Shown here piece after piece: positions 15,330-22,694 of a stretch of DNA of 64,000 nt. Positions within the stretch are counted from its first letter, which is position 1. Each line of letters opens with the position of its first letter. Where the stretch lies: the NCBI GenBank assembly GCA_035389045.1, contig DAOORA010000017.1:1-64000 (forward strand), given 5' to 3'. The DNA comes from Bacteroidales bacterium. Lineage in GTDB: Bacteria > Bacteroidota > Bacteroidia > Bacteroidales > CAIWKO01. The notes beneath the pieces are model-generated. The model did no database searches. It had not been told where the DNA came from and saw only the letters and a program-made list of their open reading frames with translations. The translations under genes and the position numbers were made by a program.

Positions 15330-16145
15330 ATGAAAAAATCTCACCTTCTGCTTATTACCGGTATGTTGTTTTTTGCCGCATCCGGATGTAAAAATGTGGA
15401 ACAAGCCACTGCTCCGGTTTATCCCGGCGAAGTACAGAATAACGATTACATGGAGCTGGCCATATTGTATCATCAGCGGTCTGCCGAGATAAAAGCCCTG
15501 TATTACCAGTCGTTTAACCTGGCAAAACTGATGTTTGAAGAGGATCTCGCCAATAAAAATGTGGCCAAAAAACGTGCAATAGTTGTGGATATTGACGAAA
15601 CCATGCTCGACAACAGTCCCTATGAAGCAGAATGTGTTATGGGCGGAATTACCTATCCTGTGAAATGGGATGAATGGGTTAATAAAGGCACTGCTGATGC
15701 CTTGCCCGGTGCTGTCGACCTATTGAATTTCTTTGCCGGTAAAGGCGCGGAAGTGTTTTATGTTTCCAACCGCACGGAAGACCAGCGCGAAGGAACGTTG
15801 AAAAATCTGAAAGAAAAAGGCTTTCCTTATGCCGACAATCAGCACCTGAAGCTGAAAACAAAAACCTCGACCAAAGAAATATACAGGCAGCAGATAGCAG
15901 AAAACTTTCATATCAGCCTGCTGATAGGTGATAACCTGTCGGATTTTGTCAGCGGTTTCGAAAAACAGCCTTCCGGTATCAGAGATTACAAAGTTGACAG
16001 TTTAAGAAACGAATTCGGAAAGCGCTTTGTGATATTGCCCAATGCCATGTATGGCGACTGGGAATCGGCTCTTTATAATTACAACTATAAGCAAACAGAA
16101 AAACAAAAGGACAGTTGCCGGAAAGCGAATCTGAAAGGATTTTAA
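15330..16145 (+). CDS. 5'-nucleotidase / acid phosphatase lipoprotein, e(P4) family (class C HAD)
   Basis: Lipobox 'ASGC', 'VDIDETMLDNSPY', 'YVSNR', 'IGDNLSDF', 'LPNAMYGDWE'. Confidence 0.93.
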   Translation: MKKSHLLLITGMLFFAASGCKNVEQATAPVYPGEVQNNDYMELAILYHQRSAEIKALYYQSFNLAKLMFEEDLANKNVAKKRAIVVDIDETMLDNSPYEAECVMGGITYPVKWDEWVNKGTADALPGAVDLLNFFAGKGAEVFYVSNRTEDQREGTLKNLKEKGFPYADNQHLKLKTKTSTKEIYRQQIAENFHISLLIGDNLSDFVSGFEKQPSGIRDYKVDSLRNEFGKRFVILPNAMYGDWESALYNYNYKQTEKQKDSCRKANLKGF

Positions 16146-16182
16146 TATGTCTGTTATGCAGGCCTGAAATCCTTAACAATTG

Positions 16183-16250
16183 TCTGTTTTAGCAGCCCTG
16201 ACCTGATAGTCCTGCTATGCCGGACCGCTGACCGGGGCTGCAGAAACAGA
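16183..16250. other. GC-rich hairpin between convergent genes (possible bidirectional terminator or mRNA stabiliser)
   Basis: TCTGTTTTAGCAGCCCTG ... CGGGGCTGCAGAAACAGA outer stem with an inner GTCC/GGAC pair. Confidence 0.45.
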
Positions 16251-16258
16251 TCGCTGCT

Positions 16259-17038
16259 TTATTCTTCTCTCAGATCGTAATCCACATCGTCAAAATATAA
16301 TAACTCCGGGGATTTTTTTGCTTTTGCCGGAGTCATCAGATCCATTGGACGCAACATTCTTGTTTTAAATACCGGATCGGTAAAGATGCTGCTTCTGATC
16401 TTTTTCATTTTAAACAGGGGGGTAATTCCCTGTTCAGCAACTATTTTTGTGTACAGGTCTTTTGAAAAAGCACATTCAAGATTAAGACTGGCATCTGCAA
16501 TATCCAATTTTGCTGTCGAAATATCGGCTTTGGCTTTTAATTCAATTTTAGCATCCTGCGAACTTGAAATAATTATTGTCGCAGAGTCTGCTGTGACCAA
16601 TTCAGTAATTACAGCCCAGTCTTTATCCCATTCGCCCTGCTGGTAACGCTGGATTATTTCTTTTCCGAGCTTGATCTGGTCGCTGATGCAGGGGCTTAAA
16701 GTTCCGTTGGCTTTGAATAAAATGGCATTTTCCTGAGAAAAACTGATGGAAAATCCCGCATCCCCATTGGCAAGTACGCTTCCCAAAGCCGGTACCGTGC
16801 CGGCAATTTTTGTCATTACGGATACCTCGCCCTTTGTCATATGTTCCAGGTCGGTTTTTGTAGTATCTTCTTTGATCTGGAAAACGATGCCTTCATTTTT
16901 GAGATTCGAAATTTTAGTGAACTCGTTGTTTTTAAATAACCCGATATCTCCCAATTCTAAGGGAGTGCCCGGAAGCCATGTGGCAAAATAATCGAATTGT
17001 CTGTACAACTCGTTTGTGTACTTTTTTACTGTTTTCAT
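16259..17038 (-). CDS. Gasdermin-like pore-forming protein (putative bacterial gasdermin)
   Basis: 259 aa, no signal peptide. N-terminal 'WLPGTPLELGDIG' (P..GD motif), amphipathic beta-hairpin segments, 'WAVITELVTADSATIIISSSQDAKIELKAKA' resembling the gasdermin 'V(V/I)T' strand, and a short acidic/aromatic C-terminal tail. Recognition by eye only. Confidence 0.65.
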   Translation of the reverse strand: MKTVKKYTNELYRQFDYFATWLPGTPLELGDIGLFKNNEFTKISNLKNEGIVFQIKEDTTKTDLEHMTKGEVSVMTKIAGTVPALGSVLANGDAGFSISFSQENAILFKANGTLSPCISDQIKLGKEIIQRYQQGEWDKDWAVITELVTADSATIIISSSQDAKIELKAKADISTAKLDIADASLNLECAFSKDLYTKIVAEQGITPLFKMKKIRSSIFTDPVFKTRMLRPMDLMTPAKAKKSPELLYFDDVDYDLREE

Positions 17039-17179
17039 AATTAATTAAATTTAAATGTTTGTTAGTGTGTCTGTTATTTGTTGTTTTTGATTGTTATTTG
17101 TTCTGTGTCCTTGTTAATGGCTTATAGCTAATTTTTTTATTACTTTCATGATATAAATACGAATTTAAATCATCAGAAA

Positions 17180-18532
17180 TTATAATTTTTCAGCAACCCA
17201 GCAATGAACATTCGACTGAAACATCTTTTCCTGCGCAAAATTAGCGGCAATACAGCTTCCGCGGCAGTCGGCAAGCCAGTCGCAGCGCCGGCAGGGGCCA
17301 TCAATATCTTCCGTAACAAGGCTTCTGAAATAATTAAGTATACGAGATTCATACCAGATGTCCACAAAATTCTTTTCCATAACATTGAAGGTAGCTGCTC
17401 CTTCAAAAAAGTTACAGGGTAATACGTTACCTTGTGCTGTAATGGTGCAGTATGCTATTGCCCCGTCGCAGCCGATATGCTGGACCGAGGGATGCTGTTT
17501 CTGAGCTGCAGGGGGGCGGAGCGTACATTCAAATTCCATGGGTATCAGCTCCAGCCCGACTTCCTTTTTCAGCTTATAAAGAGTCTGTGTGAGTTTTCGC
17601 ATCCTTTGGGGTTTGATCTCGAGGTCGCGGAATTCAGATCCCCGGCCAAAGGTAACAAAGGGCATGATTCTGAATGAACTGACCCCCAGATTTTTAACAA
17701 ATTTGAAAAGATGGGGAATCTCATTAACATTAAGACGGGTCACCACGGCAGCCACCGAAACCCAGGCACCTTCGCGGATAAGATTTTTTATGCCCGAAAC
17801 GGTTTTATTCCACGATCCTTTTTTATTTCTGAATTTTTCATGCGTTTCAGGGTTTATGGCATCAAGACTGATCTGGGAGTACAGGCCAAGTCCTGCAATT
17901 TTTTTCGCCACTTCCCGTGTAATAAGAGTTGCGTTGGATGCCAGCTGAATGGAAAGCCCTTTTTTAACCGCATATGCTGCAATAGTAAAAAAATCAGGGC
18001 GTACCAGCGGCTCGCCTCCGCTCAGGATTAACTGTTGAACACCGAAACCTGCCATTTCATCAATGAGGCTCAGGCATTTTTTCAGTGGGAGTTGTTCTTT
18101 GCGGTCAGGCCCGGAATCAACCACGCAATGACGGCATTTAAGGTTGCAGCGGGAAGTGATATCCCACAGGACTGCTATGGGCGGAGGAGGCTGGTAATAC
18201 TGCATCCGCTTTTTGCGCCACCAGATGAAACCCTTTTTCGTCAGCTTGTCCATGAACAATTCTGTTTTCTGACGTGTTTCGGAATATGGCGTTTTAAAAG
18301 CCTTTGCTGTTTGAAGGACGATCTCGTAAAAAGTGTGATATCCGTCGCAAAGGTTTACGATCCAGCTTCCTGACTCATTCAGAAAAAGCTCCGTCCCGTT
18401 CACAGGGTGGCAGATCCTTCGGGATCCATCGCCGGTGATTCTGAAAGGGAAAAAAGGAACGCCGTCCGAAGGGTATACATCTCGTAATTTCTCTGATTTC
18501 TCAGAGAAGTTCTTCCCGCTGCACCTATCCAT
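17180..18532 (-). CDS. PqqD/RRE-fused radical SAM/SPASM peptide maturase
   Basis: N-terminal PqqD-like 'LNESGSWIVNLCDGYHTFYEI...FMDKLTKKGFI', 'CNLKCRHC' (CX3CX2C), 'SGGEPL', and SPASM 'CDG...GNVLPC...CRRCDWLADCRGSC...C'. Confidence 0.93.
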   Translation of the reverse strand: MDRCSGKNFSEKSEKLRDVYPSDGVPFFPFRITGDGSRRICHPVNGTELFLNESGSWIVNLCDGYHTFYEIVLQTAKAFKTPYSETRQKTELFMDKLTKKGFIWWRKKRMQYYQPPPPIAVLWDITSRCNLKCRHCVVDSGPDRKEQLPLKKCLSLIDEMAGFGVQQLILSGGEPLVRPDFFTIAAYAVKKGLSIQLASNATLITREVAKKIAGLGLYSQISLDAINPETHEKFRNKKGSWNKTVSGIKNLIREGAWVSVAAVVTRLNVNEIPHLFKFVKNLGVSSFRIMPFVTFGRGSEFRDLEIKPQRMRKLTQTLYKLKKEVGLELIPMEFECTLRPPAAQKQHPSVQHIGCDGAIAYCTITAQGNVLPCNFFEGAATFNVMEKNFVDIWYESRILNYFRSLVTEDIDGPCRRCDWLADCRGSCIAANFAQEKMFQSNVHCWVAEKL

Positions 18533-18561
18533 TATAAAAATAATAAATACTTGAAAAACAA

Positions 18562-20658
18562 TTATTTGTGCATAATTCTCTGAGCGCTGGCGTTGAGTTT
18601 TTTAAGTTCTGCTGCTGAAATTCCTGACACACGTGATAATTTAGCTGTTTTATTCGGCGTGCTGGTCGCCGAAATAAAATCAGCGACCGTTTTAATGTTC
18701 ATTCGGGTCAGTATTTCAATGTATTCTTTTTTGATGTGAGGAATTTTGTCCAGTACCAGAACAGGATTAGAAACGATGTCGGGATTAAACACGGGGTCTG
18801 GTCCGGGCAGGCAGTGCACTATGGGCGCCACCGAACATATTTTGGGCGCCGGAGGACAAATGTATGCGGGTGACGGCGGGCAGATGACCGTTGGAGCGGG
18901 AGGACACACCAGATGAGGAGCCAATGTGCATGCGACAGGCGCCACGGCGCAGATTACCGGTGAGGGCGGACATGCTGCCATAGGGCCTACCCAGCAGGTG
19001 ATGGGGCAGGTTACGGCCGATCCTATTCCTACGGAGGCGAAAGCATTTATGATACTGGCGCGCCATCTGTTATAATGCGATGTGCCAAGATAAAGATCTT
19101 CCAGCGAATCAAGCACAGCATCTTTCATATCGGCAAAGTCAGAGGTAGACGTCAGATAATTGGTGAGTGCATGATAATACAATTCTCCCAGGACATCACG
19201 GCCAAGGCCTTCACAGATAGTTATCCCCCTGTGTGACCCGCCGGTGGCGATCAGATAGGCCGCCTTATTCATAATGCCGCTGTTAATATGTACTCCGCCA
19301 TAATCATCTGTACCAGTGTACATATCATTCGTGTGGTCGGGCTGGTGTCCGTCGATAACACTACCAATGGGATCTGTAGTGTCGTATTGTCCTCCGTTGG
19401 TCGGATCCTGGAGGTTTCTGCTGGCAGGCGCGGTGGTTTTCAGCCAGTAATCTTCCCCTTGCAGCCAGTCTCCGTCGACTAAAGCGGCAAAAACATCAGA
19501 CATGGATTCATTGAGGGCTCCGGGCTGATTGGAATATACCAGGGCGGCAGTATGTTCTGTAACGGCATGGGTCCACTCGTGCGCAATAACATCAATGGCG
19601 CAATAGCTGTCCTTGTCAACCTTATCCCCGTCGCCTATCAGCACATAACTCCCGTTCCAGTAAGCATTATTGGTATTACTGCCATAATGGGCATAGATAT
19701 GCATCTCGGCGCCTGCATTGTCATAACTGTTACGGCCATGCTTGCTGAGATAATAATCAAACACCATCCGTGTATAGAAATGACAATCGACTTCTTCCCG
19801 CTGATCGGTGGCACTCCAGTTATTGTTGGCATCTTCAGAAATGGGTGAGGGCGGATAACCACTGTTGCAGTCATGGGTAACAATTTTTGTTGATGTCCCT
19901 GTGGCGCCGTCTTCAAGGGTATATATGCCTGAAGCATGGTTGTGCATGGTATTCAAAGGGCTGGATGTGCTGGTATGGGCCCCGGAATATTTTCCTGTCC
20001 CGCTGCCTAAGGCATTGGTATGCGCGTATACATTATTATACCTTACAATAAAGTTACCCGTCTGGCTGTCGATGAAATAACTCCATATTGACGGATAGGG
20101 ACTCCCGTCCAGCGCCTTGTCTTCACCTTCTGCAAAAACCTGCCATGCAAGATAGGGTTTGTTCTTCACGTCAATTATTACTTTGAGGACAGGTTCTCTT
20201 TTTAACCGGTCGGGTTTATTGTTCTTGTCGTGCTTTAAAACAATGGCCAGCGCCTGCCTTCCCTGAATCTTTGGTTTGTCCGGCACCACAATATTCGAAA
20301 AAAACCGGCCGGCTATACCCCGTATTTCATTCTGACGGTTGATGTGTACAACTAATTCATGCCCGAAAACAGGATAGTTTTTGAACATTTGCTGGTATTT
20401 GAAATGTCTGTTGCCCATCTTATCCTGCAGGGCATCAATAAGTTTTAATTCCTCAGCAGGAGATTTAAAACCATATAGATCTTTGATTTCCTTAAAGAAA
20501 TTCATTACAGCTAACCGGGGTTCAGCAGCCTCAGGTTTCGACAGCGCCCCCCTCATTCTTAAGGGAACTCCGGTTTTTTCATTCCAGATATATTCAAGAT
20601 TGGAATCAGCCTTTTTGAGATTTTTAAGAATCTTGTTTTGTTTTTCTGTGGGTTTCAT
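18562..20658 (-). CDS. Thermolysin-family (M4) metallopeptidase with FTP/PepSY propeptide, C-terminal Cys/Pro repeat and HhH(DUF4332)-like domain; no signal peptide
   Basis: 'NNAYWNG', 'DVIAHEWTHAVT' (HExxH), 'GALNESMSD', 'DYGGVHINSGIMNKAAYL'. Propeptide 'HFKYQQMFKNYPVFG'. N-terminus is hydrophilic ('MKPTEKQNKILKNLKKAD'). Confidence 0.93.
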   Translation of the reverse strand: MKPTEKQNKILKNLKKADSNLEYIWNEKTGVPLRMRGALSKPEAAEPRLAVMNFFKEIKDLYGFKSPAEELKLIDALQDKMGNRHFKYQQMFKNYPVFGHELVVHINRQNEIRGIAGRFFSNIVVPDKPKIQGRQALAIVLKHDKNNKPDRLKREPVLKVIIDVKNKPYLAWQVFAEGEDKALDGSPYPSIWSYFIDSQTGNFIVRYNNVYAHTNALGSGTGKYSGAHTSTSSPLNTMHNHASGIYTLEDGATGTSTKIVTHDCNSGYPPSPISEDANNNWSATDQREEVDCHFYTRMVFDYYLSKHGRNSYDNAGAEMHIYAHYGSNTNNAYWNGSYVLIGDGDKVDKDSYCAIDVIAHEWTHAVTEHTAALVYSNQPGALNESMSDVFAALVDGDWLQGEDYWLKTTAPASRNLQDPTNGGQYDTTDPIGSVIDGHQPDHTNDMYTGTDDYGGVHINSGIMNKAAYLIATGGSHRGITICEGLGRDVLGELYYHALTNYLTSTSDFADMKDAVLDSLEDLYLGTSHYNRWRASIINAFASVGIGSAVTCPITCWVGPMAACPPSPVICAVAPVACTLAPHLVCPPAPTVICPPSPAYICPPAPKICSVAPIVHCLPGPDPVFNPDIVSNPVLVLDKIPHIKKEYIEILTRMNIKTVADFISATSTPNKTAKLSRVSGISAAELKKLNASAQRIMHK
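18790..19010 (-). repeat. Coding tandem repeat of C-x-x-[G/S/A]-P (9 copies, period 7-8 aa)
   Basis: CWVGP, CPPSP, CAVAP, CTLAP, CPPAP, CPPSP, CPPAP, CSVAP, CLPGP, plus one preceding Cys (10 Cys in total). Confidence 0.95.
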
Positions 20659-20830
20659 AATTAATTGATTTTTAGGTTAATATTTATGCAGACATTTTTT
20701 GTTCAATTGGATTTTTACAAGGTCCCGGCTCACACTTATCAATCAACCTGATTTGTTCATTCGTTTAAAACTATCTGAAAAACAAATTTTCAAAAAAAAG
20801 GATGTTGTAAAAATATTTCAAAGAAACCAA

Positions 20831-20838
20831 CAAAGTTA
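20831..20838 (-). promoter_or_regulatory. Candidate -7 promoter element (TAACTTTG) for the M4 / radical SAM / gasdermin-like cluster
   Basis: Matches TAnnTTTG, about 170 nt upstream of the 20658 ATG, in an AT-rich intergenic region. Confidence 0.45.
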
Positions 20839-21002
20839 ACATTTTATTTTTTTAAATAACGAGTAATTAACAAAAATATTTTTAATTCAAATTATATAGA
20901 TACGTATAGTGGTGTCCTGAATAAATATTCCGATGCTAATTTGTTGTGGTGTTTTCTACCGGATTGAGATTGTCTCCACAAAAATTATTAACATGAGCAC
21001 AT

Positions 21003-21035
21003 AAAAAAGCCGGATTTTTTGACGATCCGGCTTCT
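21003..21035 (-). terminator. Rho-independent terminator of the 22694/21552 unit
   Basis: Minus strand: AAGCCGGAT-CGTCAAAAA-ATCCGGCTTTTTT. Confidence 0.75.
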
Positions 21036-21081
21036 ATTGCTAAAGTAAACTAAAAAATTTCCGTACTGGAACTTAAAGGGT

Positions 21082-21552
21082 TTAACCGAGGATTTTAATC
21101 AGGTTGCCGCCCCATTGCGGTTTCATATAAACGGATTCGATGATCATTCCATAATCATTGTCATCTTTTCCGCCATCCTCGATGTTGAAAATATAATTTC
21201 CGAACCGCGTGTTTACTTCAACTTCAGCGGTATTATCTCCGATAGTATTGATTTGAATGTCGTCTTTTTCGATAAAATTATAAGGAGGAGGAAAACTGAA
21301 TCCGGCTGGAGAATCTGCATCAATTTTTGATTTTATGAATTTATTGTGGTGATGTATATTCCATTCATCCAGAGACTTCTTATCTTTCACACTTGATTTT
21401 TCTTCAGTCAAAAAATCTATTTTGCATCCATAATCATCATAATCGTCCGGTTTGCAAAAATTGTTTTCAATGGAATTTGAGACACAATTGATCAAATCTA
21501 TGCCTGTTGTATAATCAATTATGAAGTCTTCAATTTTTTCTTTATTTATCAT
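21082..21552 (-). CDS. Hypothetical acidic protein, possibly NTF2-fold (immunity-like)
   Basis: 156 aa, D/E-rich, with 'GFSFPPPYN...AEVEVNTRFGNYIFNI...MIIESVY' beta-meander. Confidence 0.5.
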   Translation of the reverse strand: MINKEKIEDFIIDYTTGIDLINCVSNSIENNFCKPDDYDDYGCKIDFLTEEKSSVKDKKSLDEWNIHHHNKFIKSKIDADSPAGFSFPPPYNFIEKDDIQINTIGDNTAEVEVNTRFGNYIFNIEDGGKDDNDYGMIIESVYMKPQWGGNLIKILG

Positions 21553-21593
21553 GGGTTAAAATTTTTATGAATGCTTTGGTAATTTTTACAAAA

Positions 21594-22694
21594 CTATTTG
21601 TTTACGTTACCACAATTCATTTCTCCTTCGGTGTAATAAATGTTCAGGTATTTGGGGCCATATTGTCCGCCGCCTTCATGTTTTTGAGCCACAGAGCCTT
21701 TCACATAGTAACATTTTCCGTCGGCTTTTTTTGTCGCAATGTCAACTTTTACAAATTTTAATTTCGCAATGCCATATTCATTGTTTTCAACTTCCCAGGT
21801 GTTGCTGGTAATCACCACACGTATAGGTTCGCCGTATTTTGCCTTGTCAATTTTAGAGGTGACCGTCGAATTTACGCTTGCGTCGGTCATGCCGGCAGCA
21901 TGCAGCCTTCTTTCTTCAACAAGTTTTTTCTCAATTTCGGCATCCCGTTTTTCTAATCCGCCGCCGTCCACATAGGCTTTTATTTTGTCTTTCTGATCTT
22001 TGAGCGATTTTTCATATTCTTCTAATGCAGGATCTGGCTTGGTCAGAAATTTTTTTGCACTGGTAACCATTTTCTCAGCCACTTCAATATCTTTTATTCT
22101 GTCGGTAGGATACACGGTCCAATCCTTATCATCGAAACTTCTTTTTGCCTTTTCCTTGATACTCGCCATTTTTTCAGGAGAAACCGTTTCGGTATAAAAG
22201 GCATCGATTTGTCCTATCAGCTTAGTTGTATAAGTGTCACTATGGTCTTTTCCATTTTCTTTTTTGTAACCAGCACTAAAGTCGGCATAAAATTTTTCGT
22301 ATTCCGTTTTTTTTGCAGCATATTCGTCGTAAGCCAATATGTCAATTTGTTTTTGCAGCCTTTCAAAAGTGGATGTCCATTCCATTTTTTGTGTCTCCAG
22401 TTCTCTGAAGTCAACCTTAACGGCAGGGGTTGAGGTCTTTGGTGTTTCCGTTGCGGGTTTGGTTTCTTCGCCGGTCTTGCTGTTTGTTTTATCGGAACCT
22501 TCAGTTGCAGCAGGTTTGGTTTCTTCGCCGGTTTTATTCTTTGTCTTATCGGAACCTTCAGATTTGCCCGGTTTTAGCTGTGGTTTTTCCTGTATCTTTA
22601 CATTGCCCGGTTTAAGTTTGTCGAATTGTCCAAATGAATTACATACTCCAAAAGAAAGAATTAAGGAGATTAAAACAATGAATGGTTTTTTCAT
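21594..22694 (-). CDS. Secreted hypothetical protein with a repeated K/T/E linker and a helical domain
   Basis: Signal peptide, duplicated 19-aa linker, helical middle region and beta-rich C-terminus. Confidence 0.7.
   Translation of the reverse strand: MKKPFIVLISLILSFGVCNSFGQFDKLKPGNVKIQEKPQLKPGKSEGSDKTKNKTGEETKPAATEGSDKTNSKTGEETKPATETPKTSTPAVKVDFRELETQKMEWTSTFERLQKQIDILAYDEYAAKKTEYEKFYADFSAGYKKENGKDHSDTYTTKLIGQIDAFYTETVSPEKMASIKEKAKRSFDDKDWTVYPTDRIKDIEVAEKMVTSAKKFLTKPDPALEEYEKSLKDQKDKIKAYVDGGGLEKRDAEIEKKLVEERRLHAAGMTDASVNSTVTSKIDKAKYGEPIRVVITSNTWEVENNEYGIAKLKFVKVDIATKKADGKCYYVKGSVAQKHEGGGQYGPKYLNIYYTEGEMNCGNVNK
22456..22561. repeat. 57-bp in-frame tandem duplication (EGSDKTxxKTGEETKPA x2)
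   Basis: GGTTTGGTTTCTTCGCCGGT...TTATCGGAACCTTCAG at 22456 and 22513. Confidence 0.9.

Follow-up and report, generated by a model that had tools for sequence, protein, structure and literature searches.

Does an open reading frame (ORF) in a Bacteroidales contig encode a bacterial gasdermin (bGSDM) and, if so, what would hold the protein inactive and what would release it? Pyroptosis has its prokaryotic root in bacterial gasdermins, and an initial annotation of the 64,000-nucleotide stretch of DNA analyzed here (the window) had read this ORF as a gasdermin with a short, cleavable C-terminal tail. The peptides quoted in support of that reading (ATWLPGTPLELGDIGLFKNNEF; GEVSVMTKIAG...AGFSISFSQ; AKIELKAKADIS...ASLNLECAFS; WAVITELVTADSATIIIS; PVFKTRMLRPMDLMTPAKAKKSP; and ELLYFDDVDYDLREE) are all found in the translation of the ORF (Table 1). 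We conclude that the ORF very probably encodes a divergent bacterial gasdermin. The reading that explains our data best, to which we assign a probability of roughly 60%, is that the protein is a cysteine-less member of the bGSDM superfamily that is held inactive by its tail and that would form pores upon cleavage of the linker ahead of the tail, acting in an abortive infection-type defence.

The ORF is a real gene and not a chance reading frame, as is evident from the 122 homologs found at E ≤ 1e-3 in a word-indexed search, from the 2,656 cluster representatives returned at the same threshold by an exhaustive HMMER search (of which 2,005 pass E ≤ 1e-10 and 883 pass E ≤ 1e-30), and from contigs in RNA libraries. 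The 122 homologs are mostly from Bacteroidota and are either unnamed or named 'hypothetical', while the closest relatives (P0002–P0007) are 64–73% identical to the window protein. Neither Pfam-A nor NCBIfam gave a match to the protein at E ≤ 0.1, and its sole library match was the PADLOC bGSDM model PDLC02986 (E 0.0047, 14.5 bits), aligned between residues 6–171 of the ORF and positions 5–177 of the 257 in the profile. The same model was matched weakly by 22 of the 44 aligned family members (best E 1.2e-4) and by 12 of the 38 homologs from genomic loci (best E 6.7e-5). In the PDB, neither the protein nor a family profile found anything by sequence beyond noise (CodY, E 1.1; ankyrin, E 0.035), and in the nearest ESM Atlas clusters the Pfam family PF26164 Bact_GSDM is present on 33% and 12% of the members. 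What emerges is a large, mostly Bacteroidota lineage that current defence-system profiles barely see. The family is patchily distributed: of 401 genomes sampled from the phylum, 6 carry it, as does 1 of 40 relatives, and 17 genomes of the same genus yielded none; plasmids gave four distant family matches, and phage records gave none. A single-protein search of genome contigs gave no match to the gasdermin, and the sole match in a metagenome scan was a 100% identical copy (L048); searching genomes with a 15-row alignment yielded 36 related gasdermin loci.

We next consider the fold. The AF2 model of the protein, built from a 44-row alignment, has a mean pLDDT of 87.6 and a pTM of 0.83, and gasdermins ranked first in all three structure searches made with it, a comparison that the initial annotation had proposed as a check. 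With Foldseek against the PDB, the best 10 matches were all gasdermins or the gasdermin-like RCD-1, headed by the pore of Vitiosangium bGSDM (9a84, E 1.1e-5). The TM-scores to gasdermin structures are low to modest (0.35–0.39) and the rmsd is high, in part because active and inactive conformations are mixed, and the fold assignment thus rests on the ranking together with whole-chain coverage. Indeed, when aligned to each of the three crystal structures of inactive bGSDMs, the model is matched through the tail (model residues 10–259 on 7n52_B, 1–256 on 7n51 and 7–256 on 7n50), at 8–16% identity. The fungal proteins RCD-1 and HET-Q1 and the metazoan gasdermin N-domains (GSDMA3, GSDMD, GSDME and Trichoplax GSDM) score below the bacterial structures; eukaryotic gasdermins have large C-terminal domains or other activation routes. 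As modelled, the window protein has the gasdermin N-terminal-domain fold, and both fold and family context place it among gasdermins. The MACPF/CDC superfamily was also considered and rejected, as its members score under all gasdermins and align over part of the chain; MACPF/CDC and CDC-like pore formers are much larger, multi-domain secreted toxins, an architecture absent from the window protein.

A common fold is not proof of a common function, and a protein with a gasdermin-like fold could have a role other than that of a cell-death effector, for example as a non-lytic membrane or lipid-binding protein. At the sequence level, the protein resembles characterised bGSDMs only marginally, one homolog carries the name 'AsmA-like C-terminal doma...', and a structural neighbour in the Atlas is labelled TamB, although with a TM of 0.46 this row lies under the Atlas's own naming bar. 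We regard such a role as very improbable, because relatives are repeatedly linked or fused to caspase-like proteases, STAND NTPases, TIR and SIR2, which is a signature of death effectors, and because the gene has the patchy distribution of an accessory gene.

The layout of the protein also resembles that of the bGSDMs of Runella zeae, Vitiosangium sp. and Bradyrhizobium tropiciagri (7n52, 7n51 and 7n50; pore or oligomer structures 9a84 and 8sl0), with which it shares a length of about 260 aa, the gasdermin N-domain fold, and a flexible loop followed by a short C-terminal peptide, with no large helical C-terminal domain. Relatives linked to C14 and CHAT proteases, and an accessory distribution like that of defence genes, are further points in common. 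For bGSDMs, a length of about 240–300 aa is expected, with a short C-terminal peptide past a flexible loop; the window protein has 259 aa and, in the model, a tail of 29 residues. Residues 221–230 are the sole internal stretch of low confidence in the AF2 model (mean pLDDT 55), while tail residues 231–250 are confidently placed (pLDDT 80–87), and the tail is predicted to run through two short helices and a strand (247–251) to an acidic end. The linker is the least conserved segment of the protein (0.49). Among close homologs, D-L-x-T-P, A240 and F249 are conserved in the tail, and the tail motif (D-L-x-T-P ... Y/F-F-G) is carried by 69 of the 120 close homologs and by 7 of the 132 distant representatives. 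The proposal of a bacterial gasdermin with a short C-terminal tail was therefore well founded, given the ranking in the structure searches, the alignments through the tail and the confidence pattern of linker and tail. The same applies to the two hairpins that had been singled out as candidates for membrane insertion: hydrophobic and polar residues alternate in the sequence, and the AF2 model has a strand-loop-strand arrangement in both (E62–77/E94–114 and E141–169/E187–216), such that the would-be membrane hairpins of the gasdermin domain are predicted to be the regions of about 62–114 and 141–216.

The arrangement of linker and tail is the one described for Runella bGSDM, which, according to Johnson et al. 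(2021, bioRxiv), is cleaved after L247, within a loop of about 12 residues ahead of the inhibitory C-terminal peptide. By analogy, we infer tail autoinhibition, proteolytic release and pore formation for the window protein as follows. Residues 1–216 would form the pore-forming gasdermin domain, and the peptide of residues 231–259 would pack back on this domain such that the cytoplasmic protein stays soluble and inactive. Cleavage of the linker (residues ~217–230) would free the C-terminal peptide, whereupon the freed core would oligomerise and insert its two β-hairpins into the inner membrane. The large pore formed in this way would kill the cell, most likely as an abortive infection-type defence. 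Activation by tail release is likely on this analogy; in the literature, we found no toxicity, cleavage or pore assay for any member of the lineage.

Table 1. Features of the gasdermin locus in window coordinates, with the basis on which each was delimited.
Feature	Position	Strand	Basis
Gasdermin-family ORF	16259..17038	minus	259 aa + stop, ATG start (ORF list)
Predicted pore-forming gasdermin domain, residues 1–216	16391..17038	minus	Both strand-loop-strand regions inside
Flexible linker and candidate cleavage loop, residues 217–230	16349..16390	minus	Low pLDDT; analogy with Runella bGSDM
C-terminal peptide, presumed autoinhibitory tail, residues 231–259 + stop	16259..16348	minus	pLDDT, conservation
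Gap between radical-SAM and gasdermin genes, 141 nt	17039..17179	minus	Sequence read
PqqD/radical SAM/SPASM enzyme, 450 aa	17180..18532	minus	Pfam Radical_SAM 1e-25, PqqD 2.4e-6, SPASM 3e-6
Thermolysin-like M4 protease, 698 aa, without signal peptide	18562..20658	minus	Pfam FTP, Peptidase_M4, Peptidase_M4_C
4.86-kb block (gasdermin, radical SAM, M4, 344 nt upstream)	16145..21002		Absent from same-genus genome G408

One difference from the characterised bGSDMs lies at the N-terminus, where many, but not all, bGSDMs have a stabilising palmitoylated cysteine. The initial annotation had noted its absence, correctly so, as the first cysteine of the window protein is residue 117 and the only other one is residue 189. 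A cysteine within the first 8 residues is present in 2 of the 252 homologs of 200–300 aa, which argues that the whole lineage is without the palmitoylation site. This count, together with the fact that the PADLOC bGSDM profile barely touches the family, upholds the further suggestion of a distinct subfamily without the palmitoylated cysteine. We regard the window gasdermin as a new cysteine-less member of the bGSDMs, whose lineage may already be among the homologs (50 genomic and 387 metagenomic) listed by Johnson et al. (2021).

A second difference lies in the neighborhood of the gene. Downstream is a convergent gene for a HAD-type acid phosphatase (15330–16145), and upstream, on the same strand, are the two ORFs of 450 and 698 aa that encode the radical-SAM enzyme and the M4 protease (Table 1). 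Thus, in contrast to bGSDMs with a canonical protease next to them, the window gene has a metalloprotease two genes upstream, together with a radical-SAM enzyme. All matches of the latter in NCBIfam were under their cut-offs. The M4 protein ends in 8-residue repeats of the form C-P-P-[SA]-P-x-x-x, followed by a helix-hairpin-helix-like end. Eight proteins found with this C-terminal part share the architecture of the M4 protein (P0267–P0274), seven of which were aligned with it (alignment A3); the C-P-P-[SA]-P repeats are visible in this alignment as well. The Cys/Pro repeats are likely the substrate of the radical-SAM enzyme, fused to the protease.

The three genes are jointly missing from a genome of the same genus. 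The empty site in this genome, G408 (contig C58, locus L073), matches the window at 15386–16144, up to the end of the phosphatase gene, continues with about 34 nt, and then matches 21003–21818, which makes the gasdermin, radical-SAM and M4 genes plus 344 nt a single indel. A blastn search of 17 genomes of the same genus found no piece of the 4.86-kb block, and no direct repeat was seen flanking it. Its GC content is 0.404 in the gasdermin gene, 0.473 in the M4 gene and 0.469 in the radical-SAM gene, compared with 0.409 for the genome and 0.466 for the neighboring PFOR gene, and the block is thus not distinct by composition. The right junction lies beside a GCCGGAT...ATCCGGC hairpin at about 21010–21040.

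This co-insertion, which provides a concrete candidate activator in the form of a metalloprotease without a signal peptide and its radical-SAM partner, raises the question of whether the three genes are one mobile death cassette. The cytoplasmic M4 protease, its C-terminus matured by the radical-SAM/SPASM enzyme, would then be both sensor and activator, namely a thermolysin-family protease dedicated to cutting the gasdermin linker; it would carry radical-SAM-cross-linked Cys/Pro repeats and the helix-hairpin-helix end, and its target would be the cysteine-less gasdermin. The single indel, unseen in the 17 same-genus genomes, is consistent with such a cassette, although two successive insertions at a hot spot would leave an identical indel. 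All three genes have the same orientation and are separated by 29 and 141 nt. Two TAnnTTTG motifs, which we take to be the −7 consensus of Bacteroidota, lie upstream of the M4 gene, and the 141-nt gap before the gasdermin gene has neither such a motif nor a terminator-like site. Scans for sites were uninformative, since both a sigma-70 scan (12 sites found vs 10.9 expected) and a terminator scan (5 found vs 6.1 expected) were at the level of shuffled sequence. Because the M4 protein lacks a signal peptide, with a start that is conserved in 8 of the 8 rows of alignment A3, it could meet a cytoplasmic substrate. In the founding survey of bGSDMs, moreover, a protease adjoins 43 of 50 genes, according to Johnson et al. 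(2021).

Several observations nevertheless make us consider a dedicated M4 cassette unlikely. Searching 8–10 kb around the 41 other gasdermin loci turned up no homolog of the M4 or radical-SAM gene, M4 is absent from the bGSDM protease types given in the accessible portion of Johnson et al. (2021, bioRxiv), and we found no joint mention of bacterial gasdermin and thermolysin in the literature. The initial annotation had pointed to residues in the linker that suit thermolysin at P1'; hydrophobic P1' residues occur all over the protein, and they therefore have no power to discriminate cleavage of the thermolysin type. Furthermore, the orthologues of the radical-SAM enzyme pair with an astacin and not with a gasdermin. 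The only full-length orthologues that we found, with 41% identity, are in 2 of the 401 phylum genomes (G126 and G166), where they follow an astacin protease that bears the same Cys/Pro repeats. The pairing of a metalloprotease with a radical-SAM enzyme is therefore an independent module. If the cassette were real, it would represent a new protease class for gasdermin activation and the first role of a radical-SAM-matured protease in bacterial cell death.

Regarding the module itself, a metalloprotease without a signal peptide followed by a PqqD/radical-SAM/SPASM enzyme is seen at 17180–20658 of the window (M4) and at L059:6761–9880 and L058 (astacin). In the latter two, the gene after the radical-SAM orthologue is a conserved YscW-like one of 120 aa (L059:9518–9880; L058; 62% identity between the two genomes), which occupies the slot of the gasdermin in the window. 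We found no description in the literature of an M4-family protease with a radical-SAM/SPASM module.

To place the window gene among its relatives, we surveyed two genes per side at 39 gasdermin loci, with Pfam run on 135 of the 148 ORFs (those under 90 aa being omitted). L027 and L042 were omitted from the neighbor analysis, as their gasdermin ORF was not called by our crude ORF caller, and the tree has 38 rows, with the partial matches L024 and L047 omitted. A Peptidase_C14 or CHAT gene lies within two genes of the gasdermin at 7 of the 39 loci (L009, L034, L037, L041, L028, L033 and L045), several of which also have nSTAND1 NTPases. SIR2-EAD11 plus nSTAND1 are found at L010 and TIR genes at L030 and L038–L040, and the plasmid homologs H1 and H2 adjoin annotated CHAT genes. 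At L041, a gasdermin-like domain forms the C-terminus of a 1,235-aa nSTAND1 protein (L041:710–4414; blastp E 8e-21). Among 11 unusually long family members that we scanned, four are gasdermin-C14 fusions, and a gasdermin-subtilase, an Endonuclease_NS-gasdermin and an LRR-gasdermin fusion occur once each (P0157, P0208, P0221, P0234, P0200, P0125 and P0213). Together, the linkage to protease, STAND, TIR and SIR2 genes and the fusions identify the family as one of death effectors linked to proteases.

The window gene is, however, somewhat removed from this evidence. The C14, STAND and TIR contexts all fall in one clade (support 99/97) with the window gene outside, and in the window's part of the tree, where the nearest row is L016 (62% identity), a linked protease is rare, with CHAT genes only at L028, L033 and L045. 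The protease dependence of the window's clade is thus extrapolated from its relatives. A gasdermin without a linked protease might be activated in trans, either by an unlinked host protease or by one that a phage brings in, with linker and tail serving as bait. Besides the co-inserted M4 protease, which is the nearest candidate, other contigs of the genome encode three proteins of the CHAT type and one of the Peptidase_C14 type as candidate activators. Most loci in the same part of the tree as the window gene lack a linked protease, the tail motif is kept nonetheless in the 69 close homologs mentioned above, and some such loci lie near defence genes, namely type I restriction (L024 and L029), AbiC (L031) and TIR (L030). 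We see no link, however, between the CHAT or C14 proteins and the window gasdermin gene, and the phage records, as noted, have no member of the gasdermin family. According to Johnson et al. (2021, bioRxiv), the Runella protease has specificity for the bGSDM from the same genome, which argues for dedicated pairs that are usually linked. Weighing both sides, we take activation in trans to be a possibility of some standing, if on the whole a rather unlikely one. Some orphan loci have other peptidase genes at a distance of two genes or less, namely M49 (L012, L013 and L018), S37 (L026), NlpC/P60 (L025), a weak M19 (L016) and a weak S10 (L019). Since these peptidases belong to unrelated types, and the three M49 loci are related by synteny, we attributed their presence to chance.

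A different kind of control is suggested by four loci of a neighboring subclade (L012, L013, L015 and L018), where a TPR-HisKA_3 histidine kinase and a LuxR-type response regulator are encoded directly upstream of the gasdermin on the same strand. The same pair is found upstream at L038–L040 in a distant clade, with a TIR gene between it and the gasdermin gene. The combination of kinase, regulator and gasdermin may be a death cassette under two-component control; a literature search for response regulators in connection with bacterial gasdermins yielded only unrelated papers. By extension, the window gasdermin could be activated without proteolysis, through its expression level or by another trigger, and its tail would then tune solubility only. 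RCD-1 and the Trichoplax gasdermin are gasdermin-like proteins that act independently of proteases and thus provide a precedent, and the scarcity of linked proteases in the window's clade fits this possibility too. In the window, however, no kinase/regulator pair lies beside the gasdermin gene, the modelled layout of linker plus tail is that of protease-activated bGSDMs, and some family members are fused directly to C14 or subtilase domains. We therefore consider proteolysis-independent activation to be quite improbable, and retain release of the tail by cleavage of the linker as our preferred reading.

Latent pore formers that are unleashed by a linked protease are known from other families. 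Pepco and EACC1, as described in PMC12642450, follow a logic in common with that proposed for the window gasdermin, which is set apart from them by its gasdermin fold and by having zero Pfam matches. With a lineage that is without the lipid anchor, and a branch that is usually without a linked protease, the relatives of the window protein are a good place to study how a minimal gasdermin is controlled.

Lastly, we looked for signs of expression. Contigs with at least 99% identity over parts of the gasdermin ORF are present in 3 of 3 metatranscriptome runs, and expression of the gene is therefore possible, with the proviso that DNA carry-over could also produce such contigs. In run X7, contigs cover 16137–17059 in three pieces and leave the radical-SAM gene uncovered, and no RNA contig of the three runs spans the 141 nt that separate the radical-SAM gene from the gasdermin gene; assembled contigs cannot reveal the ends or the structure of transcripts, so we draw no inference from the uncovered gap or gene. 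Two minor observations concern the DNA upstream. At their starts (17022–17052 and 20642–20672), the gasdermin and M4 genes share 31 nt at 77% identity, centred on AATTAATTATGAAA in the coding strand, a likeness that may be due to chance in AT-rich DNA. Three genes upstream of the gasdermin gene, a 366-aa ORF (21594–22694) that, like its counterpart, has no Pfam match shows weak homology (28% identity over 116 aa, E 4e-6) to L035:9206–9730, which lies two genes from the gasdermin of that locus.
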